The position numbers were made by a program, and so were the translations under genes. The notes beneath the pieces were generated by a model, which was not told the DNA's origin, searched no databases, and worked only from the letters and a program-made list of their open reading frames with translations. A stretch of 59,888 nucleotides of DNA, counting the filler, from Rhizaria sp. SCN 62-66 (Eukaryota): NCBI GenBank assembly GCA_001724265.1. It is 2 parts of 2 records of this genome, joined end to end, with 100 filler letters (N's around TTAATTAATTAA, not from the genome) between each part and the next. Parts side by side here need not be neighbours in the genome. Positions count along the whole stretch, not along the records: positions 1 to 29,899 come from MEDY01000373.1; positions 30,000 to 59,888 come from MEDY01000375.1. The stretch is one strand, 5' to 3'. Shown one piece after another: positions 2 through 58,500 of this stretch (the stretch's first letter is position 1; each line of letters starts with the position of its first letter).

Positions 2-628
2 TGCATGGTGATCCGTCTTGATGACAAACGGCTCCCTCATAACGCAGCACACTTCCGCACTGCAGCTCAAAGTTGGGCATTGGGTTCCCGATTGCACCAC
101 TGCTTCGTCCCTTCAGGTCAGTCCCCGGGCACTTGTCTACCGTTTGCCACACTGCATTGTGACTACGGACCCTCATGTGCTAAGGCGCCAATCAAACTTC
201 CTGAGACCGACATTGTTTACGGTGAGTACACGGCGCCCGCTGCCAACGCAAACGTGACATATCCAGTCGGCACAGTGCTGATGTACCCTCGCGAAGTTGT
301 GCCTCGTGAGAGGTTTCTTTCAATTTGCGGGGCATAGGACTCCCCATGGTTCATTGTGTTCAAGCCTTGCGCTGCCACTTTGCTGCGCGGCGCGGTGCCG
401 GTCGGGCGTGTGATGTCGTTTGTGGAGGGGGAAACTGCATCAAAAAGCGATAGTAGTGCGCAACCATTTGATGCAAATGTGTTGCAGTGCTTTGAAACCT
501 ATGCCACTCCGCAGCCAGGTCAAAATTGCAAACATAACGAGTCGTTAATGTATTTTGATGTGTTCATGCCTGTAGACACTGATACGCATGAACTTATGAA
601 CCCTACGCAACTAACAACGCCAGCATAA
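2..628 (+). CDS. 3' part of an unknown protein (5' truncated by window edge); one in-frame TAG at 335-337
   Basis: ORFs 5..337 and 356..628 are in the same frame (offset 351 nt) and joined by GCA-TAG-GAC-TCC-CCA-TGG-TTC-ATT-GTG with no other stop. Ends at TAA 626-628, followed by AT-rich sequence. No family recognised. Confidence 0.6.
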
Positions 629-981
629 CTTTAATCAATCGACTATATACGTTGAAATTCGCACAAAAAGATCACAAGTCACACCCAAAACAGTGTTACA
701 GATACAGCATAATCTTGTGCTAAAGTAGAGATGAAGTTCAGCCACGATCATTCGCAGCGCACGATAATCTTCTGGACACTTAAGGAGTTTAGCATGTATC
801 AGTGATAGAAGAGATTAAGCAAGGATTTATTCATTGAATACCAAATTACAATCAAAAAAAAAATGGGAATATTAACACATCAACTTAACCACCAATCAAT
901 AACAAGCACACAGTCGAACAAAACTAAAAACCAACAACGAAACAAAGTCACAATTAACAGCACTCACGAATTGCGTATTTT

Positions 982-3900: not shown

Positions 3901-6900
3901 CGAGAACGACAGAGTAAGGATGATGCCGGGCACGACCAGGGCGATGGCGAGGTAGAACATAAAGCGCATGTGGGGCCAGAGGCGGTGGCCGAAGTGGTCA
4001 ATGCGGTACCGTGACAGAACCAGGTTCACCTGAGGAGCAAAAGGGAAAGAAGAGAAAAGATTTGTTCAAGTGAGATATTGGACCCAAAAAAAGCACGACT
4101 CGGGAGATAAACATTTAAAACGAACATGATACAGAGCATTCAAAAAAATATACTCCGAAAGAGTTTGATATTGTCGGTGACAGCGACATACCTGCGTGAA
4201 GAAGACGCCCATGAGCCCGGTGGCGACCCCGAGCCCACAGACGACAAAGAGCTCGCGCGTGTTCATCGCAGGCACCTGCGGCATGTCGACATCGATGAAC
4301 CCGCGGTCGGGCAGCAGCGAGTTGTCGCCCTTGACGAGGTTGCTGACGACGACAGAGACCAGGGACGTAAAGAAGAGGCGCAGAGTGAGCTGCAGAGAAA
4401 GGGACTCGCGGGCCATGCCCTGAAGCATCACGATGCCGGCCAGTGGCGCGTTGAATGCTGCCGTGAACCCCGCCGCGGCGCCGCACGCGATAAACGAGTG
4501 CTCATCGGCCGCGCTCGAGAGAGATTTGGCGAGGATCTGCAGCATTCCCGAGACGGTAAGTTCGGACGCCAACGCGATGGGCGACTCATCGTCGTCGGCG
4601 CCGGTCAGAAGCGGGCCCTGGGGCGTGTAGGGCGCAGGCACGGGTGCGGCGCGCGACGGTGGCACGTACGACGCCGGAAGCGTGCCGATCTCGAGCTCGG
4701 CAATGCCCGATAACGCGCTATTCTTGCTGAGTCGCGTGTTCTCATCCGCGTCGTCGTCGTCATCGTCGTCGTCGTAGTCGTACTCAAGCGTCACCGCAGA
4801 GGCCGCGTTGCTGTTGCTCCGGTTCCCGGCCGCGCCCCCCGCCGCCGCAGCAGCAGCCGCGGCAGCGCTGGTGGCGCTGGTGGTCTTGAGGAGCGCGACG
4901 ATCGAGTCGGTCTGACGCAGCCCCGGGTCGACGTGCGTCATCATGTAGTCGCAGAGACGCATGCGCGACTCGGTGCCGCGGGACATGCGCGCCGCGGCGC
5001 GGGCGGCCGCGGCAGCGGCAGCAGCGTCGGCGGGCGTGTAGGCAACGGACTCGCGGTGCAAGCGCTCTGCCAGCGGGCGCGGCGGCGGGAACGACCGGGT
5101 CACAGTGCCGTCCTGCGGTAGTGAGACGAGAGCACAGAAAATGAGGGGATATTGTGAGATATAAATGAGATATAACAGGAAATCAATGAAATAGTAGTAC
5201 TATAGTATTAAATTAAAAATCGCAAAATTTTTAAATATAATACTACTATTCCGCGACGTACTTGTCCGAAGCCGACGCCGACGTCACTTCCTCCCAGGCC
5301 CATCCCGGTCCCCCCCAGTCCGTCGTTGTGCCCCACAACAGAGCCACCGGGGGTCAGCACACCGACGTCAGACTGTGCCGAGTCGTCCAGATCGAGCTCT
5401 TCGCGGCCGCTATGACGCGAATACCCCGCGGCAGCCGCCGGAACAGGACCGTTGTTGTTGCTGTTGCGACCGCCGCGGTTGGAGTGGCGACGGCGGTCAA
5501 CCACGTCCCAGCCCTCTGAGCCGTCCTGGGCCGGGACGAGCACGAGCGGCGACAGCGAGAAGCGCCGCTCGAAAGCAAACCACAGCGCGGCGGCGCGGCG
5601 CGCGAGCGGCCCCGCGGCGGCGCGCGGCGGGCCTAAGCACGGGTTGCGGCGGCACCTCTGGTGTTTGTTGATCAGACAACAGCAGAGGGCGCGGACGACG
5701 CGCGCCGTGGCCGGAGACGCGACGACGCGGACCAAGAGCGTAGTGACCTGGCGCGCGATGAGGCCGCCCATGTGAATCAGCGGGCCCTGGAGCCCGGACT
5801 TGAGGTTTGCGCCCAGAGCGAAGATGAGGGAGACGGTTTTGGCGGCGAGGACTTTCATGGTGAAGATCGGCAGCGAGGTGTTAAAAGAGCCGTCTAAGTA
5901 GGCGGCTAAGTGGGGAATACCGGAGCCGCGGATGGGATAGTACCCGCCCATGAACGACACGACGACGAGCGCGGCGCCGAGCACCAGCGTGATAAACACA
6001 CCGACGATCATGGCCGCGACTGGCCAGAGCCAGTGTAGCCCCGAAGAGAAGCCCTTCACGCCGCCGTTGCGCTGCATGAAGAAGGTAATAGCGGCGATGA
6101 GCGTGGTGTAGAGCCCGCGGACGCCGAACTCGACTGCGAGGCCGAGACACGACACGGCGACGCCGATGATGAGGCAGATGAAGAAGCGCGCAAACTGCGG
6201 CCACACGGACTCGAGGAACGAGACCTGTGCGTAGGTGTGTGCGCGCGCGATGCGCTCTTCATCGAACGTCGTCTCCATGCTGCCGGCGCCAATGCCGCCG
6301 CTGCCCAGCCCGCCGTTGCCCCCGCTGCCACTACTACTCCCGTTGTTATTATTGTTGATAGCAGCGAGGTTGTCGGTGGAGAACGAGGGTGGAATCGGGG
6401 TCGTGTTGTCCGCGACTAGTCCGCCGAGCGCGGGCGCCGGCGACGGGGAGAACGCAGGGGACGCGGAAGGTGTCGCAGCAGCACTCACGGACCTGCTAGC
6501 GGCACTATTTACACCACCGCCGCCACCGGTTTGGAAACTGCTGCTAGTGTTGTTCACGATTGCGCTGGAGACGGGGGGGCGCAGCGAGGGGTTGTTGCCG
6601 AGGAACTTGGGGCCGAATGCTTCGTCAAAGTCCCTGATGAGCACGTCCACGACATGCTTCGTGCCCGGGAGGTGCGGGTCCACGTCCCGCCGAGCCGGCT
6701 GGCATCCATACACTGCCTCGGCGCCCGACACAGGGCCCGAGGATGAAACTGAGGAGGCGACGCCGAGGCGAGGGAGCAGGTCCGCGGGCGCGGGGACGCG
6801 GGTGGACAGGGCGGCGAGCGTGGGTCCCAGTAGTTCGGTGGTTGCGTGGGATGTGAGGTCGTCGGTGAAGTCAACCGTCTCCATATAGTCGATCTCCTTG

Positions 6901-7268
6901 ACGACGCCCGCGCGGCGCGAGGACGGCGCCGGGCGGCCGCGCGGGGACAGCAGCGGCGACGATAGCTCCGCCAGCGCAATCCCGCCGCCGGTGCTGCTGC
7001 TGCTGCTACTGCTGCTGCTGCTGTGGGCCTGGCCGTTGTTGTTGGGGGAAGTGGAGGATGAGTGGATGATGGGGACGAGGCCGCCGGTGCTGCTGGCGTT
7101 GGAGCCCGCGCGCGGGGCGAGCGACGGGGACGCCGACGGTGGACGGCTCGACGCGGCAGAGCCGGGAGTCGTGGAGCCAGAGCCAGCGGCCGCGGATGCA
7201 GAGGCGTTATTGTGGGAGCCGACGGAGGGCAGGCGACGGGAGCTGGGGAGCTCGCCGTCGTTGTCCAT
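982..7268 (-). CDS. CLC-family chloride channel/transporter with C-terminal CBS pair; exons 7268-5262, 5112-4192, 4029-982
   Basis: CLC motifs GSGIP, GLQGP (GxEGP position), GAAAGFTAAFNAPLAG, PGGFFMP (GxFxP) and RLTLPLAVMMVEFT. CBS-like segments HSAFPVV..FLGTVSRADL and MFRQVGMSRVVLL..VVTKKD. Phase-0 introns GTACGT..CAG (5261-5113) and GTATGT..CAG (4191-4030) join the three ORFs. Stop TAA. Confidence 0.9.
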
Positions 7269-8234
7269 GGTGGTGGGGCGCGGGGGGTTAGACAAAACAA
7301 GCGGGTAGAGCCGTGGTGCGCTCTGTGATAAAGGCGTAGGACGTGTGAGATAAGACACAAGAGAGAGACATGCGTGGTGGGTTGAGTCCAAGGAGACGCG
7401 TGTAAGCAAGTTTGAACCAAGGATGCGGATCCGTGCGAATAATGGGATTTGCATCAACTAAATAAACGACTGTTGAGTCCGTAAAAGCATAAGAAATACA
7501 ATGTAGCCGTGCAGACCTCGACATAATACACGCAGTGAAGAAATACGAGTCGATGAAGAAATAATCGATTGTGCGAGATTGCCCTAAGACCAATGTGACC
7601 GGCGACGAGGCAGAGGCCTCACCAAGGTCATTTTTTGGCAACTTGAGGGGTGATCGCAGAAACCGCGGTATATACGCTTTTTTGTGAATATAAACCTCTT
7701 TTTTTGAATGATTGTGGTCGCTTTTTGAAATTTGAATTTCTGTGTTTAAAATTTGATTCTGCAACTACATCGTCTTGGAGCGAATTTCTGAAAACGCAAC
7801 TTCAGAGTCAAAGTAGGGGGGCTAAATATAATAGGATATAATTGTGAAATTAGTAAATATACAAAAATAAACCCGTCAATATACTATCTTAAGTGTCACA
7901 ACATTAAGAAAAGCAAAAATTATTAAGTTAACGTTTGATTATAATAAGTTATATCCCGTCATAGTTAAGTAGCCGATTTCGCACGAGTGACCTACCAAGC
8001 GTTTGGTGGTCTTCTAATCAGGGGATTTCTCAGAATGACGTAAATCGCCGCCGTAGAGAAGGTAGACGCAGCCGCCGTCCTCACACGCAGATTTAATGAG
8101 ATGAAGTCAATTCGGGAAAAAATGTAGAAGAGCATAATCTGAACACATAAACGACAACGAATAAAACTTGTATTTTTGAAGATATTTCTTGTGTTTCTTT
8201 TCAAGTTGATGATCTTCGGCTCCACAGATTTTCT

Positions 8235-11200
8235 TCAAGTGAGCCGACCTTGCTTGGCCTCGCCATCACTCCCCGGGGCTACAGTCTCTACGCCCATTAC
8301 ATCCGCATTTTCAGGGCTGCGCTGCGTCAACTGTGGCGGACTATGCAGCGTCTGCCGGTGCAGTTGCTTCGCTTTGAGCTGTCTCCGTGCGCGCGCCTCT
8401 GCCTCCGCGCCACCCTGTCCCCACCACTCGCCACTGCCACACTGCGCATCAACGCCATCACAGTCGCCAATGGTTCCGTTGTCCGGCACCTGCGCGGGGG
8501 CCATGCCCGGCTGTCCACATGCAGCGGACAACAGAGCGGGGCGCTGGTGAGCAGGTTTGTGGGGCTTCACAACACACGTACCACTCTGCTATTGCAGTTG
8601 ATGCTCGTGTTTCCCAACCTGCTGCACTTGTTGCTGCTGCGCAGCCGACCAGGGCCCGCGTGCAAGCGACAGCCGCGGCGCGTTGCGATTGCTGCTGGCG
8701 GCAAACCCGGCGGCCGTACTGCCGTTCAGGAACGCGGCGCCGAGCGAGCGCGCAGTGTTACCGTCCCTGCGTGCGCAGGCGTTGGCGTTGGCGTTGGCGT
8801 TGGCGTTAAAGGCAAACACACCGTTGTCATTCTCGTCACACCCACGGCCGTGTTCGTGCTCCAAGTCACTGATACTCTCAGAGTGGTCGATACCGCAGTA
8901 TGCACCCAATGCAAACGCACAGTTTGCTTTGGCAGTGTTCACGTTTACGACTGTATCAACGACAGTCGTGCCAAATGAGCTAGACAGACCTGCGACAGCT
9001 GCTATTGTAGCCTCTGAGTTATCCACAGTTCGGTGCACATTGGTCTCATTTACCTGCTCGTGGAGCGACTGCTGCAGTAGCTGTGGTGGTGGCAGTGACT
9101 GAAGCATTGACTGCGGCACAAGATGCGGGAATGGCATGTGCTGTTGTTGAGTTGGTGTGAAGCCAGTGAGTCGGCTCACCGAGTCTAAGGGCATGTCGCA
9201 AGCCAAATGCCCCGCCGCACACTGGTCTAAGGGAGCCAGGCTTTGACTGTGGAGCTTTCTCTCGGCGTCGATGTGTACCTGCTCACAGTCACCCGCTCCC
9301 GGAAGCAACTCGACATCAGCAGCAACTTTGATAGCGGTGTCGGTCTGACTGCGCTTCATCGCACCAATTGCTGTTGCATCGCCAGAGCTCGTGTTGCAGT
9401 CAAGATTAACGTGAATGGCGCCGGTCTCCGCGGTCGCGGCAGCGTCGCCGCGGCCAAAAATTGGGCTGACATCAGCAAGCACGGGTGTGATGACTGCAAG
9501 AGGTGCTAGCGCGGCAATACCTGCTTGTGGTGACTGCGCAGCGCTGCTGTGTAAGAACCCGATGCCTTTGGCGTGCGCTTGTAAGTACTCCGCGTGTAAG
9601 TACTCGGCAAAACCGCCCTGCAGCGCGTGGTAGCCGCCGCTGCGCCGGTCGAATCCGCTGTGCACGCTGCCCGCCGCCGCCGCGGCCGCTGCGTTGGGGA
9701 TGTCGATACCGCGCTCCACAGCCACGGCCACTGACGTCGCGGTCGCATTCGCTAGCGCAGTTGAGGTTGCAGCTGTAGCCGCAGCGCCGCGTATGCGAGA
9801 AAGGCCTCGGCAGGCAGCGGCGCCGGCGCCTGAGCTGTTATCGGTATAGTAGTAGCTGTATCCTGCGTGCTGCTGGTCGTTCGGACCGTGTGAGTCGTGG
9901 TCGTGAACACTGTTGCCCTGCAGGCCGTGCTGGCCGTGGGCCTGCAGACCGTAGCCGCCGCTGAAGTCGCCGGAATTGCCGCGCCGAGCGCGCGTGCGCC
10001 GCGGTGTCTGCTGCTGGTGCTACTGTTGCGGTTGGAGCCGCTGCCGGTGCTGTCGCAGAGGGGCAACGCTTGCGTGGTGGTGATACTGATGCTTGGCGAC
10101 CCCGGTGGCGCCTAGTCTGTTGCGCGCAGCCTCACTGTCGTCCCCACTGGCTCTGGGCTGGTTCTCGCACTCGCTGTCTGTGCCGCTGTCGTTGGTAAGT
10201 GCGCTGCGGCTGAGGCAGAGACTGCCTTCGCCCTCGCCGCTGCTGCCAAACACGCAGTCGTTGCTGCCGGCGCCAGCACCAGAGCCCGTGCCAGTGCCGA
10301 TGCCCGCGCTGCTGCCGCCGGGGCAGAGGCCGAACCCCAGTCGCAGCGGCATGGTCTGCGGCGGCGTCTGACGCGGGTACTGGCGTTGCTGCCGCGGCTG
10401 CAGTTCGAGTCCTTGCTCTGGACTGAGCGTGACCGCGGCGACCGGGATCGAGTGTGTCAACGGCGTCGCGGGGAGCAAACCGCCGGCGTCGTGATTACCT
10501 CCGCCGCCGCCGCTGCTGCTGCTGCTGTTGCTGTGTGGCACGGTCACATGCGGCGTGCCGTGGGTGATTGCGAGGCGCAGTTCGTGCATCTGCATTTCAC
10601 GGTTCTTGTCGTGGTTATGTGCAAGTGCGGTGCTGTTGTTGATGAACACAATAGGGAAGGCTGCTGCAGCGGCTGCATCCGTTGCCGCGTCTGAATCAGT
10701 CGCCACCGAGCTTGACATAGTCCCAGACGCCTTCGCTGCAGTGAACGCAGCGACGGTTGCGGCGTCGTAAAACGCCGGCGCGTACCGATACAGCCCACTG
10801 CCGCCGCCGTCAGCGCCCCCGTCCACAGAGCGCAGGCCGCTGCTGTCGCCGCTGCCGCCGCGGGCTTCCCGCCGCAGCGCAGGCGCCGGCGTCGAGGCGG
10901 CCAGAGACGCGGCCAACGACCCCGCGCCGCTGCCGCCGCCGAAGTCGTCGCGGTGGCCGCCGGCGCCGCCGCCGCGCGTGCTGTTGGTGACGCTGCGCAG
11001 CGCGGGCGACGGCAGCACGGGCGCGGCGGCCAGCGCGGCGAGCGGCCGCGGCGCGCCGAAGGGTTGGGTTGCCGTCGCGGGTGTTTCGCCGAACGCTGTG
11101 TGGGGAAAGGCAGACGCCGCCGCCGTCGCGGTGTCGGTGTCGGAGAACGCGACTGCCGCCGCGGTGAGCCGAGGCGCGCCCGTGGGATTGTTCCCCGTCT

Positions 11201-17220: not shown

Positions 17221-20200
17221 ATGCAGTCTCCACCGACGCTCTCTGAGCGTGAGGAGCGCCAGCGGCGCCAGGCGGCGTACCGACAGGAGCTGGAACAGCA
17301 GCTCGCGACGAAGCAGGCTGCCGGCGGGGTCGACCTGGACCAGTACAACCACAAGGGGCGCATCGCGCTCAAGAACGCGCTGCAGTCCGCTAACAACAAC
17401 AATAGCGCTGCCAACAGCAATGTGACGGCGTATGGCGCGGGATCGTCGCCGTCTGCGCCCTCGTTTGTCACCAACAGCGCCCCCAGTGGCAACAGCAGCA
17501 ACAACAATGGTGGTGTTTTTTACGGCAACAACAACGGCGGCGGGGGCGTGTATCCGCAACTGTCACCCCCCAGCGCGGACTACCAGGGCTACGGCTACGG
17601 TGCCGGTGCCCCGACATCCTCCGCCTCCGGGTACGGGGCTGACCCGAGCTCTGGCTACAGCAGTAACAACAACAACGCTGTCGGCGGTGCGAGCGGTGTG
17701 AGCGACTACTCAGACCCCATGGCCCTCTATGCCAACGCTTACGCCAGCCCGTACACGTCCAACCCGTACGCCCAGCTCCAAGCACCACCCACGCAGCCTC
17801 TCCAGCCGCCGCAGCCGCCGCCGCCGTCTGTGACTGTAGGTCCGCCCGTTTCGCTTGCACTGGCACCGCTGTCAATGCCTGCTTTGCCTCCACTGGCGCC
17901 GCCGCCGGCTCCGCTGCTGCCGCCGCCGACCGCGAGCTACCTCTCCTCGGCCACACCGAACTACGGCGGCGGCGTCGGCTCTCTGTCGTCGCAGCCGTAC
18001 TCTGGCGCTGGCGTTGGCGCTGCGCCAGTGTATTCCTACCCCGGTCTGACGCCGAGTCCCTACGACAGTAACTTCGCCAACAACAACAACAACAACGGCG
18101 GCAATATCGGCGGATACAACCCGGCTCCCGTTGCTGGCTCAGCAGCGCCCTACAGCTACGGGCCCGCTAGCGCCTCTAACAGCAACAACAACAACGCGGC
18201 TGCCTTCGCGAGCCTCGGCGGCGGCAGCTCTAGCTCTAGCTCGAGCTCTAGCGCGAACTCTGGCGCTGGCGCCGGTGCAGGCATGATGAGCATCGGCGGC
18301 GGCGAGCAGAGCGCCGCTGCTGCGAAACGCGAGGCCGCTCGGCGCTACCGCGAGGAGCTCGAAAAGCAAGCCGCCGAGGCCAAAGAGCGCCGCGACGACG
18401 CCAAGGCGTTGCGCAAAGGCAACGATCCCCCGTCTCTGCTCCGTATGCAGCAGCAACAGCAACAGCAGCAGCAAGGACAGGGCCAGTACAATGGCGGCTA
18501 CAGTGACAACAGCTATAGCAACAACAACAATAACAACGTTAGCGGTGGCAACAACAACAACGGTGCGTACGGCGCTGCGAGCGCGTACAATAGCGGTGGC
18601 AACGGTGCGTACAGTGCGCCGCCCGTTGCGCCCAGCGGTGACCCTGCGGCTGACGCGCGGCGGCAGGCCAAGGCAGACTTACGCGCGCAGATGGAGGCCG
18701 CGGCCAGCGCTAAGGCAGCGGCCAAGAAGCGGCAGCAGGAGGAAAGCGCGCTTGAGGAGCTGAAGCTGGAGCGCGAGCGCAAAGTCATGGCTGCCCGGTT
18801 TGATGCCGAGAAAGAAGAGGAGATTCGCCGTGCGAAGGAGAAGGAGGAGCGCAAGGCGGGCAAGATCCCCCAGTCCAACAGCGCTGGCGCTGGCGCTGGC
18901 GCTGCCAATGCTTCCAGCAGCAATTACCCCCCGTTTAACGACGGCAACACCCGCGGCAACAAAAACGGCGGTGGAAATGGCGGTAATTCCAGTGTTGGCG
19001 GTGGCGATGACGCGGACTTGGTCGCAGAGGACCCGCCCCCGGGGCTGGGCGCGGCCGCGAAGCAGCGTTGGATGCGGCTGCAGGCCGCCAAAGTGGCGCG
19101 CGCCCGCGAGGCCCGCGGGCTCTCCAGCAACAACGCCGGTAGCGACAATAGCTTCAGCGGGAACAACAACAGCAACATGAGTTAGCAAGGCCAGGGGTTC
19201 GGCGGTCCCGCCGGCGCCTACGGGCCCCCGGGCTCCGCGGGCCCCGACTACGCCCCCGGCGTCAACAACAACGGCGGCAGCGGCGGCGCGCCGTACCCAG
19301 ACCAAGGCGGCTACAACGGCGGCAACTATGGCGGCGGCGGTTATGGCGCGAATGGGTACCCGGTGAGCAACCCCAACCTGGGCTACGAGGCGGGCTACGG
19401 CGGCGGCGGCGGCGGCTACGGGCTGGGCGGCGGCTACGGTCCCCGCAACGGCGGCGCCATGAACCCCAACGCTGGCTACGACGGCGGGTTCGATAGCGGG
19501 GTTGCGTGGGAGGTCCAGCACCTGCGGCTTGACTTAAAGCAGCAGCACGACGACGCCCGGCGTCGCATGGGCGGTGATGGACAGGGCGCGCTGGGGCGGC
19601 CGGGACAAGGCCCTAGCCCGGGGCAATACGCACCGGTGTCGTATGACCAGCAGCAGCATGGCAATGGAGAAGACTATAACAACAACAACAACGGGTACCA
19701 GCAACAGCAACAGCTTGGTTACAACAACAACGGCGATTATTACAATCATAATGTTGGATACCAGCGCCCGATGTCCAGCCGCCGCGCCGCCGCCGCCGCG
19801 GCCGCCTACCCAAGCTACGGCCCCAGCGGTTTCCCCTCCGCGACGGGCGCTGTGGCCGCCATTGACGGCATTTTGCGCGGCATCTCCCGGCCGACGTCGG
19901 TGCAGGGTGCGCGCGACGCTCCGGTGCCCGGGCCTGTGCCAGCGCCAGTGTTCTCTGACAACGGGTACGGGGGCAACAACAACTACTACAACGGGGGCGG
20001 CGGCTACGGCGGTGGCAGTCATGTCAACAACAGCTACCGCGCAGGCACGCCCACGTACGGCCGCCGCTCGCGCCCCGGGTCTGCGGTGCCGCCTCTACTC
20101 TACAACGGCAATGGCGGTAACGGCGCTGGCTCCAGGCCCGGGTCCGCGAACGGCCGCAACGGCGGCATGTTCGCAGCTGCCTTCGCGCCCAATGGCGGCA

Positions 20201-21157: not shown

Positions 21158-24100
21158 TTAGTTTGAATGCTTGTAATCATCTGGATATGCTGCCATGTCA
21201 ATGCACGCCGTTACGGCAGCTACGGCCTCAACCAACGCAAGCACAGCAGCAGGCTTCCACGGCGGGTTAGAGATTGAAGTATGTCGACGGTTAGTGTCGG
21301 CAGTCAAGTCGTCAATGGCGCTGAGAACGCAGTTTGCAAGCACAAACTCTTGTGTGCCGGACGTGAACCATGTCAGGACAGTGGCGGTGGGGCTAATCTT
21401 AGAACACTACGCAACGCTTTCGAACACTCGCTCGATGATATTGCTGAGAGCTTTGACTGTCACGGGAGCTTGCTGACAATCGATTTGAAGGTCGAAATTT
21501 CGGCAGTTTGTAGATTTTGTGTCAGCACGAAGGTCACACGTTGCAGCAACCACCTTACGGCGCGCGCCGCGCATCGCTTCGGCCCATTTTCCCATCGGTG
21601 CCTTAACAGTCTCAAGCAAGCCATGCGCGGCCGACTGCTCGCGTTCAGAGCTGTCCGCGAACGAGAGCAGCCCCTCTGTCGCGCGCGTTGCATGCAAAGA
21701 CAACAACAGCGCGCCACAGCGTGCGTGAGTGATTGCAGTCGGACTGCTTGCGCGACAACAAAGGCTTTTGTCTGTCTGCAAGTCAGTACACGTGGGTGCA
21801 TGCGCATGAGCACGTGCTCTATCAGCAAGCAGATAGCTTGTGATGTCAACGCCATGCCGGGCAGCAACGCGCTCTGGTACATATGCACTGCGCATGCACG
21901 CATACGCGCACAGCTGCGCACCACACTCCCCGCTCTTATCATGTGCACATCGGCGGGGCGCGACTGCAGCATGACGTTCATCTGTCACATCACTCGTGGG
22001 ATTCTCGCTCTCCGTATCAGCCATGGTAGCAGCGTCGGTAAAGCCTCGAGGCACGACAAACACGTCAAGAGCAGCGTGGCGCCAGCGCGGGGAACCCAAA
22101 TGGCGTGCGATCGGCGAGACCCCCTTAGACCGCGGTGTAAGTGCCCACGGGACGACTGCGTGCGCCCACAGTGCGGAGCCCGCTGCGGTGGCGGCTGAGG
22201 CGGCATGGTATGCGCGCTGCAGAGGGGCCAGCGCACCCATCAGCATGCCACTGTGCAGGCGCTCTAGATCATCAACTGAACTGCCTAGAATAGGAAGAGA
22301 AGACTCGCAGAGCAGATCGTAGTCGTTGCACCGCTCCGCCGAGTGAGCAAGCGTTGTAGTTAAGCTGCACAGCAATCCTGTATGCATCTTCAAATTAGGA
22401 CTTCGAGTAAGCGCAGTTGCCAGAGAGCCAAACAAAGTCACCTTATGAAACCCGTTAAGCTCACTTTGAGGAAATTTGCTATTGGGCTTGGTGCTACTGT
22501 TAGTCGAATCAAGCACTAGCTCGCGAGCAATTGCGACTGCGTAAGCTGGGGTGACAGGATTCGCAAACTCAACTCCTTTCAATGTACGAACACCAGCGCT
22601 GTTAAGCTCATGCAGCTCGGGCAGCGGGTCAAGAAACAAGGTTTTGCGATCAGTGGATAACAAAATCGACGTATACTCAGGCACCTTGCACCGATGACTT
22701 GCTAGCGTATCGCTGGATTGTTTGCTCATTGCAAGCGGCATAGCACGCTTCCCCTGCTTGTCCAAGAATACAAACAGTGGTGATACGTCACCATTCTCAT
22801 ATCGCGGCAACAGCGCATTCGACAAGGAAGCGGAAGCGTGGTACTCTGACCCGGGAGTAGCTCGCTGCTACAAGGCTTTGCTGTCCTTTGATAGCGTGCG
22901 TTTTAGCGCATCGGGGACGCTCAAAGTGAGGCTGTGCCACAACGCACTTAATAACGCTGTATACGGGGCAGCGTGCGCGCTTTGAGAAGCGCCAGAGTGG
23001 CGCACAGTCGGGCGCATATGCAGTGGAACACTGAGCATCGCAAAGAAAGCATTGATGCCACCGAGAGTCGCGGAGTTGCTCAGCGTGAACGCGCAAACTG
23101 CGGTTGACTGCAGATAGTTGTCGTGTGCAGTGTGTGAGATCAGGGTTACAAGCAGTGGTAGGAGCGCGATCGCAGCCTTGCCGACCGAGAACTGACTGTC
23201 TTCACACGGAGAGTCCTGCTGCTGCCGCTGTTGCTCCGGATGATGTGGCAGCGGGGCCTTGTCGGGGCTTGCATCCGCGCCTGCAGCCAGCGCCAGTTCA
23301 AGCACTGCAGACAGGTGCACACGACGCAACGGCAACAAAAGCGCTCGCAGCAAGTCTGCAGCCACGCGTACGCTGAAGAGGTGCCTGGACGCCTCTAAGG
23401 GGGTCGTTTCGAGAAGGTTAATCGACCTTATCGTGCGCATAACTGCTGCATCGGCAGCGACAGCGGCGGAGGCGCGCTTGTCCACGATAGCAATGCGCTC
23501 CGCCACGTCAGAAATCTCGTTGTCACTGTCACATTCACACTCTGCTGCTGCATCAGAACCTTCCGTAGTGGTGACTGTGAGTACAATTCGTTGCAGCGCA
23601 GCGATGACCAACTGCGGCAGCGGCTCAAACTGGGGCGGCAACAACACATTCGTCCAGTCTGTGTCACCAGGCTGCGGGAGTAATCCTTCAACCCCGCGAA
23701 CTGTCCGCTGGCGATACTCTGCGGCAGCATATGAAACAACACCAGTAACTGTAACTGTTAGCACTGCAGCTGTAACCGTACGCGCGTCCGCCGCGGCCCA
23801 TGCATCGTCCTGCGGGTGAGGCGGTGGCTGGAGAGGAGAGGTGGTGTCCGCCATGAAATCTGCAAGCGCCAGCGTCTCATAACTGCTCACGCGCGTTATT
23901 GAATTACAGCTGGCTGTCTCATCGTCGGCAGTTAATGGATGGCCATTACTTACAGAGTTAAGAGTACGATGCAGTGATCGTAGACTACGCAGCCTGTTGC
24001 CGAGCACGGCAAGTGCCATCTCAGGCACGAACATCACCACTTGCGAGCTGATTAGCCCGTCTACGGGAAGCATTGTGACTGCACCGGCGGCTAGAACAAC

Positions 24101-24760
24101 GCGGAACAACGAAGGTGCGGCTGCAAGTGCAAGCGGGAGTACCAGAGGTAAAGCCCACGCATGTTCGTAGTCAGTCTCCTCAGTAAAACTCTGGGTCAGC
24201 CTGTTGTCAGTTGACGTGAGTGCCGCCGCCGCCGCAGAGAGCTTTGAGAGGACGCTCGGTGCCACATCGGGGCCGGCAAGCTGCGCGAGAATATCGTCGA
24301 CGGACACCTTGATGTAGCTCGCAATGTCTTCGTCATCGTCATCCTCGTCATCCTCAGGCTACGCGGCCGCAGGCACAGCACAGTCAGTGCCGTCATTGCA
24401 CAGCTTATTGATACTACTCACGACGGCCGACTCAAGCTCACCACACGCAATCGATAGAGATAGTGCCGGTGTGAGAAGCGCGTCTAACGCCAGAAACGCG
24501 CGCACACTCGCATTTTCAGTGGCTTGTGCGGGTGACTTCGACGATTTGAGGACAGTCGCTGTGGTCTCTGCGAGGAACATAAGCCGCTCTAGGAACCCGC
24601 TCTCGCGCAAGAAAGCTGGGTCCAGCATGCCACCATCCGCACCCACCGGCACGCCGAGTGCGCAGACGCGCGGGAACGCGCTCGTGAAGCGGGTCTGGGC
24701 GCAGAAGGGCGCAAAGGGGCGGCGCGGAAACGGGAAACCGTCCTTGGAGTGGGCCGACAT
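21158..24760 (-). CDS. Unknown ~1200 aa protein, largely helical-looking; in-frame TAGs at 24359-24361, 22868-22870 and 21407-21409; true start uncertain
   Basis: ORFs 24359..24781, 22868..24307, 21407..22825 and 21158..21343 are all in one frame and separated only by single TAG codons. Stop TAA at 21158-21160. First ATG in frame at 24760; an upstream exon is possible. Confidence 0.65.
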
Positions 24761-27991: not shown

Positions 27992-28022
<31 letters not shown>

Positions 28023-29899
28023 CCGGGTCTGCCTCCTCCGCAGCGCCCGCCGTCACCGCCGCCGCACTGCCGCCGGTCGGCGCGCTGCAGCTGCCGCCGT
28101 TCGCCCCGCTGCGCCTGACGCCGCTGTCCGAGTGCACCTTCTGCGGCGAAGCCCTGCAGGTGTGCCGCTGCCCCTCGGGCCACTGGCGCACAGACGCCGC
28201 CGCCATGGCCGCCGCGTCTGCGCACTCGCTGCGCGCGCCCTGCCCCGCGCACGGTGCCTGGCTCGCGCTGCCGCCGCCCGCGCCCCACCAGCCCTCCGCG
28301 GCGGCGTGCCCGTCCTCGGTGCTAGCGTCGGCCGCCGCCGCGAGTGCCGCGGCCGCCGCGGCTTCGTCCAGCTCCATCAGCCCGCCTGCTAGCAGCAGCA
28401 CCAGCAACAGCAACAACTTCACCGACGCTAACGCCGGCGGCGGCCGGATCCGCAGCTCCGCCTCTGACGACGGCAACAGCAACAACTGCAGCAGCAGCAG
28501 TGCGCGCATGAACCCCCCTGGCGCGACGCAGCTCTCACCAACCTTCAGCACGGCGCGTAGCCACCATGGCGGAGGCGGGGGCAGCGGCGGGGGCCACCAG
28601 CGTCACCGCAGCGGGCCCCCCGGGATCGAGTGCGCGATCTCCGAGTGCAAGGACGCCGCGAGCAGCTCTCATCTCACAGGCGGCAGCAGCCTCGGCGGCG
28701 GCTGCAGCGGCGGCGGCAGCGTGGGCAAAGGCGGCAGTAAGGGCGACGCGTATACGCAGCAGGTGGCCGCGCTCGTTGCGTCACTGCAGGCGCTGCCGAA
28801 GCGCTTGCGGCCCGGGCACCGCGAGGTCCAGTACATCTACCCGCGGCCCGTGCTCACGACCGCGGTCACCGCCGGCGGGGGCGCCGCGCCCGGGGGCAGC
28901 CACGGTCACGGTCACGGCCACGGCCACGGCGCCGGTAGCAGCGGAGGCGGTGCGTCTGCCGCGGCTGCTGCGGGCGGCGGGGTGCCGCGGACCGTGTCGC
29001 CTGCGCTGTCCACCACGTCCACCATCGCGCCCTCGACGCACAGCACCAACAACAGCGGCGGCGGCGCCAGCAACAGCAGCAAGGGCGGCAACGCCAGCGA
29101 GGCGTCCGCGGCCAGCGCGCGCAACGGGCGCTTTGTCTACCTAGGCCCGCCCGCGGACCCGGGGCTGGGCCCCACGGCGCGCGCCTACGCCGGGCCTGCC
29201 GGCTCGCACTCGCACGGCGCCGCCGGCGACGGCTGCACGCTCCACGGCAACGCGCTCGTCCAGGTATGGAAAACCTCATTCATGAATGCTCAGACGTGCA
29301 ACTCGCTCTAGAATTCAAATAATATGATATTTCTATGTTTTCGTGAAATATTTCATTCAATTTGTTCTCATTTTCTTTCTGTTTATAACTTTTTCTTTTC
29401 ATTCAGGTTGCCGCCCGCACCGCACTTGCGGCCGAGGCTGCTGCGAAGGCTGAGGCCGCATCCGCCGTCGTCGCTGCCGCCGCCGCCGCCGATAAGGCCG
29501 CTGCTGCCGCTGCCGCTGAGGCCGCCGCCGCCGAGGCCGAGGCCGCGGCCGCTACTGCCGCCGCTTTGCTGATCTCATCCCCCGAGATGACTGTGACGTC
29601 GCTGGATGCTGACGGCAGCGGCGGTACTGGCGGCAGCGGCCACACCGGCAGCGACGCCTCTTTCGCCGTCTCGCCCTCCGTCGCGCTGACTTCTCTGGCA
29701 CCCACGAGCTCGGGGAACACCAGCAGCACCGCCGCCTACGGCCTCGGCAGCGGCGGCGGCGTGACGTCTGGCGGCGCGAGCGGCGTCGCGTACAGCACGC
29801 TATCGCGGCGCGCGGCGCGTAAGCACGCCAAACGGCTCCGCGCCGCGCGCGCGGCCGTGCGCGCCGCCGCTGCCGCCTCGGCCGCGGCTGCCGCGGCCG
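25585..29899 (+). CDS. GAF-domain sensor histidine kinase (GAF + HisKA + start of HATPase_c), truncated by the assembly gap; exons 25585-25609, 25764-29263, 29407->29899
   Basis: [72 protein letters not shown]-box [41 protein letters not shown]-box [17 protein letters not shown]. Introns GTACGT..CAG (25610-25763) and GTATGG..CAG (29264-29406) keep frame. Confidence 0.9.
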
Positions 29900-30319: not shown

Positions 30320-30351
30320 AGGCTGGGTGGGTGACAGGCTGGGTGGGTGAC
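30320..30351 (+). repeat. 16-bp tandem duplication (aggctgggtgggtgac x2) in a 3' UTR
   Basis: Direct inspection; the duplication yields four GGG runs. Confidence 0.8.
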
Positions 30352-31756: not shown

Positions 31757-32425
31757 ATGAGTGCCACAGCAGCCTCATCCGCCTCTACCAGAGGTTTTGA
31801 CGCGCCTTCTTCATCTGCGTCCACCGAGGCATCCACTCAGTCTCTCTCGGCTCTGCGCGCCGCGATGTCGAGCGAATTTGCCACCGCGGTGCAGCTGATA
31901 TCCTCCCGGCCTCCTCATACGGCGCTGTACTCGTCGCACGACGCTTCGGCGCTCGCCGCCAACGCCACCTTCATGCAGGACGTCTCTGCTGCGCTCGCCG
32001 CACGCGTAGACGACTTCGTGTCCACCGCGGAGGCGCTCCAAGCGCGTCTCGCCGCAATCCCGCTCTCCCCTGCGCCGCACCGCGCTGCTGCGGGACACGC
32101 GGTGGCCGAGAGCGACATTGCGAAGATCGCGCGGCTTGAGCGCGAGGTCGCCGCCTGCGACCGCGAGCTCGCCGCCAAGACGGCGCTGGCTGCCGCCGTG
32201 GGCGCGCAGCTCCGACAGGCGCACGCAGCACTGGGCGCAGCCGTGGCGGCCAACGCGGAGGTGCACCATGGTCTGTTCTACGCCGTCGAGGACGTCGAGG
32301 ACGAGGCTAGCGCCGACGCCGAAGATGCTGCTGCGGCTGCAGCTGCGGCTGAGGGCCAAGGGGAAGGCGATGCCGCGCAGCAGGGTGGGCAAGAGATGGC
32401 GGACGAGCAGGACTAGGAGAATTGA
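31757..32425 (+). CDS. Helical/coiled-coil protein, probable Mediator subunit MED21-like; TAG at 32414-32416 followed by GAG AAT TGA
   Basis: Single exon. The pattern EFATAVQLISSRPP / VDDFVSTAEALQARLAAIP / IAKIARLEREVAACDRELAAK parallels the three MED21 helices. Acidic tail. Family assigned by eye only. Confidence 0.5.
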
Positions 32426-49609: not shown

Positions 49610-50009
49610 GACAGGGCGCGGAGCTGGTTGGCGCTAAGGGGAGGTTGGCTGCACAAGGGGTCCAAGAAGGGGAGTAACTTGCGTGCCAGGAAGGGAATAA
49701 AAGGGGATGTCGGAAATATAAAAGAAGGATGTAAGACCTTCAAACATATATACTTTGCATTACAAAAATCAGAAGCAGAGACGGCCATTTTGCAGAGACA
49801 TGGACTTGCATATTTGTCATGTTTGAACAGAGCTGAACGACCCGTTCGACAACCGACCGACGACAGCCAACGATATGACCGTTAGAGAACGGCGTTGATT
49901 CGAAAACACTTCACAGTGGCGTGGTTAGTCCGTTACTCTAAATGTAGTCACTATAACCAAGAAACCCTGCTTATGTTACATGTTTTCTATTTATTATTTT
50001 CTTCAACAG

Positions 50010-53341: not shown

Positions 53342-54799
53342 TCACTTCTATCCTTGCTGTACCTGTTGCTGCTGCTGCTGCTGCTGTTTCTCCCGCTTGT
53401 GCTGTTTGCGGAGCTCGCGCTCCTGCTCGCGCTGCTGCTCCTGCAGCCGCGCTCGAGCGGCCGACTCCTCCCGCTGCCGCAGCTGCTCTGCTGATAACCC
53501 GCCCTTGCCCGCGCCGGCGTGGGCGCCGGCGAGGGCGCTAGTGCTGTTGCGACCGCGGCTGGAACCCATCTCGCCCAAGCGCACGTCGCCGCTGGTGTCG
53601 TCACTGCCGCCGCCGCTGCCGACGCTGTCGACGCCGACGCCGCTGCTGCTGCCCCCGTGGCGCAAGAGCCCCTGCTGCTGCTGCAGATAGAGCTGCTGCT
53701 GCTGCGCCTGCGCCTGGTAGGCGCGGTAGTCCTCGCGCGTGGCGAGCACAACCTCGCAGTTGGCCACGCGCCAGCGGGCGAGCGCGCGGGGAAGCGCGGC
53801 GGCGGCCAGCGCGGCGACGGCGAGCGCGGGGGGCGCGAGCAGCGCGGCGTCGGCGGCGGGCGAGCCGAAAGCGAAGAGGCGCCGCACCGTCACAGTCACG
53901 CGGTCCTTGTCCTTCTCGTCGTCGTCGCTGCCGGCGGCGGTGTCGGAGATGGAGCTGAAGTCCTGCCCCGCGCCGGCGATAAGCATGACTGCCCAGACGA
54001 GGCCGCAAACGGCGAACACGAGCAGCGCTAGCACGTCCGCGGCCGCGGCCACGGCAGCGGGCGCCAGCCCGCGGCGCCACGACAGCGCGAAGACGTACTT
54101 GAGGCGGATCTGGTACGGCGAGTGGCAGACCTCGCATAGAGACCGCGCGTCGGCCGCCGCGGGGCGCAGCGACGCGGGCAGCCGCGAGAGCACGTTGGAC
54201 AGCGGGCTGCCGCCGCTGCCGTTCGCGCTGCTGCCGTTGCTGATGTTGTTGTTCGAAGACGGCGGGGGCAAGGGAGGATAGCGCGGCACGCCGTCAGCCG
54301 TGTAGGGAGCGAATGCGGCGGCGGCGTCGCGCGTGCTCACGTAGCGGCTCCCCGCCTCGCTACTATGGGACCCCAGCTGCGGGGGCGCGTAGTCGCGGTC
54401 GGCGTCGAGCGAGGGACGCGTCTGAATCCACCGCTGGAGGCAGTCTGTGTGTACGAGCGCGAGTCCGCCCGAGCAGAGGCAGGGCGCGATCAGAGTCTCA
54501 GGCTCCTCGGGGCTGCCGCAGATGCGGCAACGCTCCGTGTCCTCGTCCTCGTCCTCGTCCTCGCCCTCGGCCGCGCTCGCATCGCGGGCAAGTCCTGCTG
54601 CCGTTGCCGCTGTCGCGGCCGGAGGGGCGAACTGAACGGGAGTATGGGTCTGTGTGGCGTCGCTGGCGTTAGTGGCGTTGTTGCTGTTGCTGTTGCTGTC
54701 TTGGTCGTCGTCGTTGTCGTTGTCGTGGAGACGGGCGTGGGCCGAGTGGGGCAGGCCGGACGGGTAAGCGTCCAGTCCGGCGCTAGAAGGGTCTTCCAT
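53342..54799 (-). CDS. Membrane-associated RING-CH (MARCH-type) E3 ubiquitin ligase with two TM helices; TAG at 53348-53350 followed by AAG TGA
   Basis: CRIC..LIAPCLCSGGLALVHTDCLQRWI..CEVCHSPY is a C4HC3 RINGv. Two downstream hydrophobic segments and a Gln-rich tail. First ATG at 54799. Confidence 0.85.
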
Positions 54800-55530
54800 G
54801 GGGAAGATGGCAACAGCCGGGGCTGAGGTGGAGGATAAAGAGATGCGGACGTGGCGTCGGGTTGGGTCTCCTTCGTCTGATTGATTCAAGTGGAGTGGGC
54901 GAAAAGGTTCCTTGAGATATACGAGGTGAGTTTTATGTAATCGATCGTGTAATATAAATGATATGGATAAACGAGCACGTTACATTCTGATATATATTCG
55001 GCAGTCGCGTAGACGGATGTTTGGTGATGATATAGTCTTTGCTCGTTTGGTGCAAACCACACTAAGCTCGAACTGCTTGGATACCAAAACTATGAATTCC
55101 GAGCTGTAGCTAACAGAAGGAGCAGTAAAGTGAGCGCGGTCATGTACTCTTGTTAAGGCAACGTTTTGTTACTGGCCCGCGTGTTTCATATCCACAGCTG
55201 GCTTGCAGTGACGCTGCCACGCATGGTCTGCAACGGAGCGATGAAGTCATCGATGCAGTGCAGCGACGTACTCACCCGCACCTCTTCAGGACTACATTCT
55301 GCCTGGTCGTTTTGCTTTTGTCTCACTTCAACTCTATTCACCATGACGCCATGCTTGTTTCTACTCAGACCCGTTTCTACACATTCATTCCATCCCTCAG
55401 CACTACAACCACAGCTGTTTATTCGTTAAAACAAGTTGCCATCTCGCGCTGCAGTCTCGACCTCTCGCGCTCCCCTTGCTGCTGCAACCCCTGCTGTGCA
55501 CACTGATTCCGCCTTGGTTGATCTCGCTTG

Positions 55531-58500
55531 ATGTCTGCACCGGCGCGCAACACAGGCCACGGCCCTGACCCCGGTCCGGCCTCCGCCTCCGCCTCCGCCT
55601 TAGCCCCCAACATTGTTGCGACCGAGACGGCTGATGCGGCGGCCCCTATGCACTCCTCCGCGTTTGCCTCGCACCCCGGCTCCCCCGCGCCCGCGCACGG
55701 CCCCGCGCACGGCCCGCCGCTTCACGCGCTGCACCTGGACACCGCGAGCGTGGCGCTCCCAGCCGACGCCGTCATCGCCGCCGCCGCCGCCGCCGCGGAC
55801 TCCGCGTATCTGGGCGAGAAGCGCCACAGCAACAAGCAGCGGCACAACGCCGACGCGCTCCACGGCGCCACCGCGACCAGCACGGCCAGCGCCGCTGCTG
55901 CCGGCGTGACAGCGTCGACTGCTACGGGCCACGACCGCGCCCACACCGGCGCCGGCGCGTCCCCGGCTTACTCTAACGCCAGCACGGCCGCCAGCCCGGC
56001 GCACGCGCACGGGCACGCGCACGGGCACACACGCACGCACGGGCACTCGCGCCATAACCCGAACACTGCCACCTCCGGAGGAGGCAGCGGCGGCGGCAGC
56101 GGCGGCGGCATCCTGGCGCGCCTCGGCTTCTCCGGCAACACCTATACGAGCGCGTCATGGGACTACCCGACCGGAATTATTGTGCCCAAGGCCATGGCGA
56201 GGCAGGCGCGTCTGCGGCCGCAGCTGCTTGCGCGCCAGGACGCGTCCGCGGCGGCGGCGGCCGTGGCGGCGGCGGCGGCGGGGCGCGCGGCGGCCGAGGC
56301 GGCCGCGGAGGCCGGCGCCGACGCCGCGCAGGCGGCCGAGGCGGGCGCCGAGGCCCAGGCTGAGGTCGAGCTTGACGCTGCGCGGCACCAGCAGCTGCAG
56401 GCACAAAACCGCCGCCGCAGCCGCGGCCCGCGTAGGTCCAGCATCGTCGCCGGCTCCGGCGCTGGGTCTGTCGGGTTCAGCGGCGCCTCGTTCGCGCTGT
56501 CCGGCGCCGGCAGCGTGGCCGAGGCCGGCGCCAGCAACACCGCGACTGGCGCCGGCGCCGACATCGCGGCGTCGGGCGGCCTGGACGTCGGCTCCTCGGC
56601 CGCGACGGACGCGACTGAGGCCACGCGACGCTGGCGTAAGAGCAAGAAGTTCGCGGCGCCGACTGCAGCACCGACGGGGCCAGGGGAATAGGCTGCGGGC
56701 ACGGCAGGTGCTGGCGGCGCAGTTTCGAGCGCGAGTGTATCGGCTGCTGTCGCCGCTGCTGCGGCGACGAAGAAAGATTTGGCCGCTCTCGGCCCCTCTT
56801 TGAGCTTTGTCTTTGACTTTAAGGATACTGATGCGAACAAGGACAAGATGGCGCGCAACGCAAAGCGCGCCCACGCTCACAAGGGCCACGCTGGCGGCCA
56901 TGTTGGCGACATTGCTAAAGACGAGGACGAGGATGAAGATGAGGATTACGACGACGAGGACGAGGACGACTACGACGATGACGACGCCGACATTTCGTAC
57001 GACGATGACGCAAATCCGCACCGCAAAAAAAAAGCTCACGGCGCGGGCGCGGCGGGTGCGGTCCCGGGTCAACCGCAACACTTACCCGACATGAGCTACT
57101 TAGACGACGAGGCGACGTACTTTGACGGCCAGGCCGGTATGATCCGGGGCGCGATCACGCGTTGCATGATTCACCCCGTCTTCCACCTCTTCTACCTGAC
57201 CGCGTTTGTGGTGCAGCTGGCGCTGGCCGGGTGGAGCATCCACCACGCGGCAACGACGCCGTCGCATCACGTGCCCGAGTGGTACGTCGTGCTCGACTCG
57301 ATCATCGTCATGACCTTCGCTCTTGAGGTCGCGCTCACAATGCTCATCCTCGGCTGCCGGTACTTTCACCACTTCATGCACTTGGTCGACTTGTTCTTCG
57401 TCACACTCGTGCTCGTGCTGTGGCTGCTCGAGCTCGCTGCGCACGAGGCGCTCGCGGAGCTGGTGACGCTGACGCTCGTGTTCCGCTTCCTGGGAAGGAC
57501 GATCCACCTGGTGTTCGAGTACTGCCGCTGGCGCAAGAGGGACGAGATGGTGCACATCACGGAGGACCTGGTCATCAACATGACGGTGTACACGGAGCAG
57601 CACGAGGCCGCGCACGGCGGCGGCGGCGGCGGCGCGCTGGGTCACATCGCACTGACAGGCACTGACGGGCGGGAACACTTCAAGCTTGTCGTCGGAGGTA
57701 CGGACCCGAGCGCTGCTGGCGAACCCGTGAGCTTGAGTGCCAGCGCCAGCGCTTCTAAGCATTACCACCATCACCACCATCACCACCATCATCACCATCA
57801 CGATCATCAACACCGCAGCAGCGCGGCTGATGGCGACGGCCACTGCGACGAAACGCAGTCGCCCGAGTCAGGAGGGGTCAGCACCCCGAACCAAAGCCCC
57901 GCTTCGAGCGACAACGCTGCTGTCGCAAGCTCAGTGCCGCTTGTGGCCGGCCCTGTCGCTGCGATCGCTTCTGCGGGCGGCGCGAACGCGACTGGAAACC
58001 AATCACTCGCGAGCAGCGGCACTGCTGGCGACGCCAATACTCACGCAGCTTACGAGCCCGGCGATGCTGCTGGCTCCACGAGCCCTGCTGGCCAGGGGGC
58101 GCCCGCCGCCACGCTGCTGCGCGGCTCCTTCGTGTGCGACAGGGACGGCTTCGGCCTCGGCATCCCCAAAGCCACTGAGTCGACGGTGGCCGCAGCTGCT
58201 GCGGCGACCGAAGGCGCGAGCGCGAACAGCAGTGGCGACAAGAACGCGTCTGCTGCGGGCGCCGCTGACGCCGTAAGCAGCAGCAGCGGCGACGACGATT
58301 ACGACGACGAGGGCGGCGACGATCTTGATGGACTCGGCGTGGGCGCGTATAAGTTTGCGATGACGCAGTCCAGGATGCCGTCGCGCATGCACCCGCACGC
58401 GCACACGCACTCGCACACGCACGCACACACGCACCGCGCGCGCGGCTCGCCGAGTCGCGGCGACCGCGGCGATGTGAGTCGCGGTGACGCCACAGCGACT

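Follow-up and report, generated by a model that had tools for sequence, protein, structure and literature searches.

Nuclear genetic codes that uncouple UAG from UAA are described for a handful of lineages, most of them ciliates (PMC11687900 and PMC5304391). UAG alone is read as glutamine (Gln, Q) in the fornicate Iotanema spirale and in the ciliates Protocruzia tuzeti, Hartmannula sinica, and Trochilia petrani—the latter two phyllopharyngean—as leucine in the rhizarian exLh and three TARA ciliate metagenome-assembled genomes (MAGs), and as serine in Scotinosphaera; an uncultured ciliate combines UAG as glutamate with UAA as lysine (PMC11687900). For other UAG-only codes, a tRNA with the anticodon CUA that does not read UAA has been proposed, together with weakened recognition of UAG by the release factor eRF1 (PMC5304391, PMC11687900). 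Here, we examine 59,888 bases (hereafter, the window) of the assembly of Rhizaria sp. SCN 62-66, in which eight in-frame TAG codons lie inside five genes, along with 16 loci (∼46 kb) of a close relative, so that the evidence base is ∼60 kb of one organism and ∼46 kb of the other. Our data suggest that UAG is decoded as an amino acid in both organisms, at ∼0.6 to 1.9 per 1,000 codons, and that UAA and UGA end genes, a reading to which we give a probability of about 0.78. For the organism of the window, a sense UAG with UAA and UGA as stops had been proposed from the sequence-only reading of this stretch, and independent contigs, a paralogous gene family, and statistics that single out TAG bear it out.

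How this case relates to described codes depends on the feature compared. With the UAG=Gln codes (the pattern of NCBI table 15) it shares UAG within genes, UAA as a stop, and glutamine as the likeliest residue. It differs from them in that 78 to 91% of genes carry UAG in the UAG=Gln ciliates (PMC11687900), compared to 5 of about 12 genes here, and in that the present genome combines a high GC content with long genes of low complexity and introns rich in AT; glutamine, moreover, is here something that we infer. The UAG=Leu, Ser, or Glu codes likewise separate UAG from UAA (PMC11687900) but use residues that our alignments allow and the codon context disfavors. The UAR=Gln codes of Amoeboaphelidium protococcarum (PMC5304391, PMC11687900), ulvophytes, Hexamita, Streblomastix, and many ciliates show the same stop-to-glutamine change, and non-ciliates are among them, yet they recode UAA too, whereas TAA ends 9 of 27 genes here (6 of 12 in the window and 3 of 15 in the family) and no in-frame TAA occurs in a coding context. 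Finally, the ambiguous codes of Condylostoma, Parduczia, karyorelict ciliates, and Blastocrithidia (for UAA) resemble this case in a possible sense meaning inside genes and stop meaning at their ends, near which TAG is enriched here; those codes, however, involve UAA, UAG, and UGA together or UAA alone, in AT-rich lineages (PMC4967479, 10.1101/2022.04.12.488043, PMC12153298). The organism would be a further member of the UAG-only codes, and an unusual one in how seldom it uses TAG, in the high GC content of its genome, and in having genes that end with TAG and then TGA. Within the limited full-text collection searched, we found no report of a UAG-only code in a GC-rich wastewater eukaryote.

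Mechanistically, UAG would be decoded by a tRNA with the anticodon CUA, probably derived from tRNA-Gln, accompanied by an eRF1 with weakened recognition of UAG, and the inserted residue would most likely be glutamine. The 59.9-kb window holds no eRF1 gene, and ARAGORN found no tRNA gene in it or in the 16 loci of the relative. TAG is rare, and it is enriched immediately before terminal TGA codons, so that the reassignment is probably young or incomplete; low usage together with TAG-then-TGA ends might show an early stage of reassignment. If the reading is correct, an uncultured, GC-rich, intron-bearing eukaryote that is common enough to turn up in metagenomes of wastewater, bioreactors, and fuel cells also bears on whether the capture of UAG needs AT pressure.

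Continuity of the TAG-bearing genes

All eight TAGs were found where the sequence-only reading had placed them (Table 1). With TAG read through, each of the five genes becomes a single open reading frame (ORF) with no TAA or TGA inside. Public gene calls split the three-TAG orphan gene into three proteins that stop exactly at the TAGs, P0002 at 21407, P0001 at 22868, and P0003 at 24359; standard-code callers thus cut proteins at TAG, and, with UAG as sense, the MAG annotation of this lineage is therefore wrong.

TABLE 1 In-frame TAG codons of the window, with near-terminal and intron-borne stops and the introns used for comparison
Feature	Position	Strand	Gene or ORF	Place and context	Runs with bridging contigs (all unchanged)
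In-frame TAG	335..337	+	2-625, 208 codons, cut by window start, TAA end at 626	codon 112	
In-frame TAG	8589..8591	-	8238-15617, low complexity, 2460 codons	codon 2343; LQ(TAG)QS	X4
In-frame TAG	10020..10022	-	8238-15617	codon 1866; QPQQ(TAG)HQQQ; open flanks of 1865 and 476 codons	X3, X4, X8
In-frame TAG	19183..19185	+	17185-20847, G/N/Y-rich, 1221 codons, TAA end at 20848	codon 667	X3
In-frame TAG	21407..21409	-	21161-24826, orphan, 1222 codons, TAA end at 21158	codon 1140	X3, X4
In-frame TAG	22868..22870	-	21161-24826	codon 653; AL(TAG)QR	X3, X4
In-frame TAG	24359..24361	-	21161-24826	codon 156	X4
In-frame TAG	56689..56691	+	55522-59328, 1269 codons, TGA end at 59329	codon 390	
Near-terminal TAG	32414..32416	+	31682-32422, TGA 32423-32425	GAC-TAG-GAG-AAT-TGA	
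Near-terminal TAG	53348..53350	-	53345-54979, RING-variant, TGA 53342-53344	GGA-TAG-AAG-TGA	
Control TGA	4066..4068	-	985-7457, voltage-gated chloride channel	in frame between two ORFs, inside an AT-rich GT..AG intron, local GC 0.34	
Intron-borne TAG	29309..29311	+	25709-29572, GAF/HisKA histidine kinase	in frame after the ORF, inside an AT-rich intron (∼29262-29410), local GC 0.34	
Introns	∼4022-4194, ∼5117-5277	-	985-7457	AT-rich, GT..AG	

Metagenome runs of bioreactors, wastewater, activated sludge, and fuel cells, from 7 studies in all, also contain the DNA of the window. We compared a 17-kb stretch holding six of the eight TAGs (335 and 56689 lie outside it) with the contigs of other runs. 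All six are bridged by contigs of runs X3, X4, and X8, from three studies other than that of the possible source, with the same letters at each site, and are therefore not consensus errors; the sequence-only reading had named such errors as a way to refute its claim.

Nor do introns of the kind supported here account for the eight TAGs, as that reading had also held. The window is eukaryotic nuclear, intron-bearing DNA with an overall GC content near 0.6, in which GC-rich genes contrast with AT-rich introns and spacers (GC, 0.26 to 0.47). Introns backed by Pfam or by ORF joins are 100 to 170 nt long, with a GC content of 0.34 to 0.41. The signature that serves as our control comes from the chloride-channel gene, whose three pieces are contiguous in the Pfam profile (positions 4 to 75, 81 to 185, and 192 to 345) and are separated by two such introns; the Rad52 gene and the GAF/HisKA kinase gene have introns of the same AT-rich kind. 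The eight TAGs fall outside all 67 low-GC segments, at a local GC of 0.47 to 0.74, compared to 0.34 for the intron-borne stops at 4066 and 29309. The latter, a TAG, was accordingly discarded as evidence of recoding.

The coding signal, too, runs across the TAGs. A codon model trained exclusively on TAG-free genes (7,842 codons) ranked the TAG frame first of six in 12 of the 13 flanking segments, and past each TAG the frame stays open and coding-like for 82 to 879 codons, with the same low-complexity protein make-up on either side. Within 150 nt after TAA or TGA gene ends, GC content is 0.31 to 0.43 in 8 of 12 cases and 0.47 to 0.57 in the other four; no such drop follows the internal TAGs. The codon-usage margin over 80 codons around isolated stops was too noisy for classification, and its four best cases are all among the eight TAGs. 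In the gene at 55522-59328, a weak ion-transport domain (residues 552 to 665) lies downstream of the TAG, and in the G/N/Y-rich gene, contigs of poly(A) RNA (run X5) map to 19192-19455 and 20093-20417, downstream of TAG 19183.

In-frame TAG is tolerated where TAA and TGA are not

Both related organisms tolerate TAG in frame, in contrast to TAA and TGA. In the window genes we counted 8 TAG, 0 TGA, and 0 TAA in frame in a total of 12,689 codons (0.63 TAG per 1,000 codons). Given the codon make-up of these genes, random nonsense mutation would yield TAG in a share of 0.59 to 0.64, which makes eight out of eight an uncommon outcome (P = 0.027). The five TAG-bearing genes, one of them with three TAGs, span 6,380 codons and are free of frameshifts and of other stops. 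In the window as a whole, 75 stops stand alone between two open stretches of at least 80 codons each (36 TGA, 28 TAG, and 11 TAA). Junctions for which no other frame offers a longer ORF number six for TAG, one for TGA, and one for TAA, among which TGA 4066, TAA 52827, and TAG 15692 lie in AT-rich DNA. The remaining junctions are TAG only, 5 by a strict and 8 by a loose count (P = 0.007 and P = 0.0004, given the 28/75 share of TAG). The earlier observation that no comparable internal TAA or TGA exists holds, with two footnotes, namely, TGA 4066 (-), which lies in an intron, and TAA 52827 (-), in AT-rich DNA that is probably non-coding.

The gene cut by the window start places a TAG within a conserved protein. 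It has 14 homologues at 45 to 81% identity, and TAG 335 sits inside a conserved multi-copy domain with invariant residues on both sides; the most conserved block (PWFIVFKPC..LLRGAVPVGRV) begins three residues after it. The column aligned to the TAG itself is variable (C in five members, Y in three, A in three, and N, H, and F once each). The sequence-only reading had stated that no TAG falls in a well-conserved column, which stands for this site, although the gene does belong to a conserved family. An AlphaFold2 model of the domain, of moderate confidence (predicted local distance difference test, 62.8; predicted template-modelling [TM] score, 0.66), has strands on both sides of TAG 335. Its best PDB matches are cyclophilins, and they are weak (E, 0.003 to 0.1; TM, 0.33 to 0.43), so that we use the model solely for the fold spanning the TAG. 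A product stopping at codon 111 would lose half of the domain.

Scanning metagenome contigs for this family, we found 16 paralogous loci (L001 to L016) in one metagenome, 42 to 85% identical to the window copy, with a synonymous divergence (dS) of 0.22 to 0.39 for the four closest. Their family ORFs (7,925 codons) contain 15 in-frame TAGs, one TGA (in L012), and no TAA. With an expected share of 0.485, the excess of TAG among these 16 stops has P = 0.00017, and the 11 column-aligned TAGs plus the TGA alone give P = 0.0023; two of the 15, near the 5' end in L001 and L010, may be 3' splice sites. The family members align without gaps across the TAG columns, the TAG lies upstream of an intact domain in seven paralogues, and of the 15 gene ends in the family, 12 are TGA and 3 are TAA. 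The ratio of nonsynonymous to synonymous divergence (dN/dS) is 0.40 to 0.67 in all 16 pairs computed, whether or not the copies bear a TAG. Window and relative together thus hold 23 TAG, 1 TGA, and 0 TAA in frame. Searching contigs further, either with the family alignment or for an exact match to 40 bases, returned no additional genome sequence of the organism.

For the three-TAG orphan gene, a word-based search (at near and shorter lengths) and a full HMMER scan of 1.84 billion representatives recovered nothing beyond the pieces of the gene itself, and a metagenome scan with P0001 gave 600 pattern matches and no relatives; the gene therefore gives no aligned-column evidence. Across the TAG-bearing ORFs of the window and the 16 loci, no TAG fell within a Pfam-aligned column.

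The family itself is multi-copy and fast-evolving, and its weakly cyclophilin-like C-terminal domain escapes Pfam. In the relative, it occurs in several fusions: with an N-terminal B-box zinc finger and coiled coil (L001 and L010), with a long helical region (L007, L009, L011, and L014), and, in frame, with a ubiquitin domain (L004). One database protein of the family, P0008, has a frame shift at its N terminus, of the same kind as that in L010.

Evidence against a sense UAG and what else could explain it

Several observations weigh against a sense UAG. (i) In the 17-kb stretch, contigs of the poly(A) RNA run X5 map inside three of the genes, but not one of them spans a TAG, and their joints are repeat noise; some intergenic bins have no X5 cover, from which we conclude nothing. 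(ii) From the window alone, the coding signal is weak downstream of 8589 and of 21407, as well as around 335; the segment that fails the codon model is the 117-codon tail at 8238-8588, whose coding signal is weak even though the TAG frame is still the best on its own strand. (iii) The family includes decaying copies, with a frameshift within the conserved domain of L010 (2562-3057) and the TGA of L012 (at 2221), and its members share ancestry, so that their stop counts are not independent. (iv) All 11 alignable TAG columns are variable. At codon 160 of L004 and codon 251 of L015, but at no other, Q has the plurality, and the nearest paralogues have TAT/TAC, TCG, CAG/CAA, GAG, or AAG at the TAG sites; all of these codons are one step from TAG, a spread that random one-step mutation would predict. 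(v) Read by the standard code, 2 of the 12 window gene ends are TAG, an ordinary share. (vi) A C occupies position +4 of five of the eight internal TAGs (P = 0.024).

The silence of the RNA contigs at the TAG sites would suit a removal of the TAGs by unconventional tiny introns or by RNA editing, and GT..AG stretches do exist around some sites, for example, of 30 nt at 8589 and of 32 nt at 335. We nevertheless hold such removal to be very improbable: every supported intron is AT-rich and 100 to 170 nt long, excision of the 32-nt candidate would put the conserved block after TAG 335 out of frame, and the family aligns gaplessly over the TAG columns.

Decay in the family raises a second alternative, in which the organism keeps the standard code and nonsense mutations have killed, or are killing, the genes that carry TAG. 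The frameshifts of L010 and P0008, the TGA of L012, the position of TAGs in variable columns where they resemble random one-step mutations, and the fact that four of the five TAG-bearing window genes are low-complexity or orphan genes would all be expected of it. Mutation, however, should strike the three stops according to codon make-up, with a TAG share of about half to 0.64, and not yield 23 TAGs with a single TGA and no TAA; nor should it spare the five window genes any other lesion, leave coding-like open frames after every TAG, or keep the sequence identical across runs of several studies and dN/dS below 1. We therefore regard dying genes as quite improbable.

A C at +4 and the Gln codons beside several TAGs point to a third alternative, a standard code with efficient, context-driven readthrough of UAG by ordinary tRNA-Gln and little downstream product. 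Programmed readthrough signals of the UAG-CAR-YYA type have a fixed hexanucleotide 3' of the stop, and none of the eight TAGs fits CAR-YYA (the hexanucleotides are CAGAGT, CACCAG, CAAGGC, TGTTCT, CAGCGA, CCTGAG, GCTGCG, and GACTCC). As for the yeast type, four of the eight TAGs adjoin a Gln codon, one of them as an exact Q-TAG-Q. In yeast, the QXQ context and C at +4 raise readthrough, and glutamine is inserted (PMC13192750). The levels reported there are only 1.6 to 8%, though, and affect all three stops with UGA the leakiest (PMC13192750), whereas here TAG alone is found, four window sites and most family sites lack a Q context, and conserved sequence lies downstream: at such levels, most molecules of the gene at 2-625 would lack the conserved domain after TAG 335. 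Readthrough of this kind is, in our view, improbable, and a sense UAG remains the preferred reading.

The residue at UAG and the use of TAG at gene ends

If TAG is sense, its neighbors in the window point to glutamine. Four of the eight TAGs abut a Gln codon (CAA-TAG-CAG, CAG-TAG-CAC-CAG-CAG-CAG, TAG-CAA-GGC-CAG, and TAG-CAG), as noted in the sequence-only reading, compared to 7.1% of positions in these genes (binomial P = 0.0014). A neighbor-context score gave Q +9.5 bits, ∼7.7 bits above the runner-up, L (+1.8). Among 5,000 random position sets, 0.22% reached this score for Q and 1.2% ranked Q first, compared to 647 of 1,000 control sets made of true Q positions. Part of this enrichment has another source, in that CAG-to-TAG mutation in Q-rich tracts partly explains the Q neighbors, whatever TAG means.

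The aligned columns are less decisive, and it is possible, if rather doubtful, that UAG is sense with another residue, such as Tyr, Glu, Ser, or Leu. Scored with BLOSUM over all family members, S leads (3.8, compared to 0.7 for both A and Q); scored on the nearest member, Q is first (9) with E close behind (7), followed by H (4) and Y (3); and scored on the nearest three members, Q again ranks first (3.3, with A at 1.0). Tyr codons, moreover, stand in the nearest paralogues at three TAG columns, and other lineages do use UAG for Leu, Ser, or Glu (PMC11687900). In favor of glutamine, just two columns have any plurality near 40%, and in both that residue is Q; Q also leads both nearest-member scores, and true Q sites in variable columns put Q first under BLOSUM scoring in 415 of 500 control draws. 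The proposal that UAG means Gln hence keeps its support from neighbor context, whereas the variable columns, with scores split among S, Q, E, and A, do not confirm it. On the sequence evidence, and given that TAG is sense, we would put the odds of glutamine at roughly two in three.

TAG use at gene ends is consistent with a recent change. Our tally for the window is 12 credible ends, with 6 genes ending in TAA and 6 in TGA, and a TAG stands just upstream of two of these ends; this is close to the earlier tally of thirteen TAA or TGA ends and two TAG ends, with the latter two now counted among the TGA ends. No end in the window or family (12 and 15, respectively) is unambiguously TAG. The two window cases (Table 1) are matched in the family by L001 and L015, whose TAGs precede the terminal TGA by 5 and 3 codons, respectively, so that 4 of 25 in-frame TAGs fall within five codons of a gene end, compared to 0.16 expected if they were uniformly distributed (P = 2e-5). 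These near-terminal TAGs may be left over from former stops and retained where a second stop follows closely, or UAG may still be a partial terminator. TAG 32414, an apparent TAG end, could be such a leftover or a sense codon close to the gene end. TAG 53348 could instead precede an intron, given a candidate of 79 nt with GTGAGT at 53345-53340 and YAG at 53267.

These ends invite a refinement of the sense reading, in which UAG has a dual meaning: it is read through inside genes and is a leaky terminator at some ends, backed by UGA. The excess near terminal TGAs and the low use of TAG would fit, as would the base at +4, which is C in most internal TAGs and G and A, respectively, at 32414 and 53348. 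We consider this dual meaning doubtful. The pattern rests on four cases, of which the paralogues are not independent and 53348 may precede the intron just described; relic stops left after a completed reassignment would give the same picture; and in L001 the conserved C-terminal FRPV tail comes after the near-terminal TAG, which favors continued translation there. It would be bolder still, and we judge it unlikely, to see here a young, still ambiguous UAG=Gln reassignment in a free-living, GC-rich non-ciliate, one that arose without AT pressure and unrelated to the known UAG-only lineages, and in which old UAG stops are leaky and backed by a tandem UGA.

Among the other genes of the window, the chloride-channel part is followed by a long low-complexity tail, and the GAF and HisKA histidine-kinase gene passes its AT-rich intron to reach the end of the first contig (the two contigs are joined by N at 29900-29999). 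Rfam gave no matches in the window. An alanine-rich, low-complexity ORF of 3,502 codons at 39128-49633 (-) has no Pfam match and no internal stop of any kind. By protein-atlas taxonomy, the chloride-channel part is assigned to "Eukaryota" only, and an ammonia-lyase fragment of the relative (L003) to bacterial and chordate clusters.

Neighbors of the family genes in the relative include an acyl carrier protein with an apparent N-terminal presequence, read by eye (L007:2459-2974, +), this histidine/aromatic ammonia-lyase fragment (L003:1833-2603, -), and a protein with SPA and Afi1 domains (L013:1487-3517, +), whose conserved parts are all without in-frame TAG. Beside the family gene of L002 lies an AT-rich ORF of 175 codons (2753-3277, +) with one in-frame TAG and no Pfam match, unlike the surrounding GC-rich genes in composition. 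In the window, finally, the G/N/Y-rich gene shows a 3-base insertion (TCT) at 18240 (+) in one contig in each of four runs, an in-frame length polymorphism.

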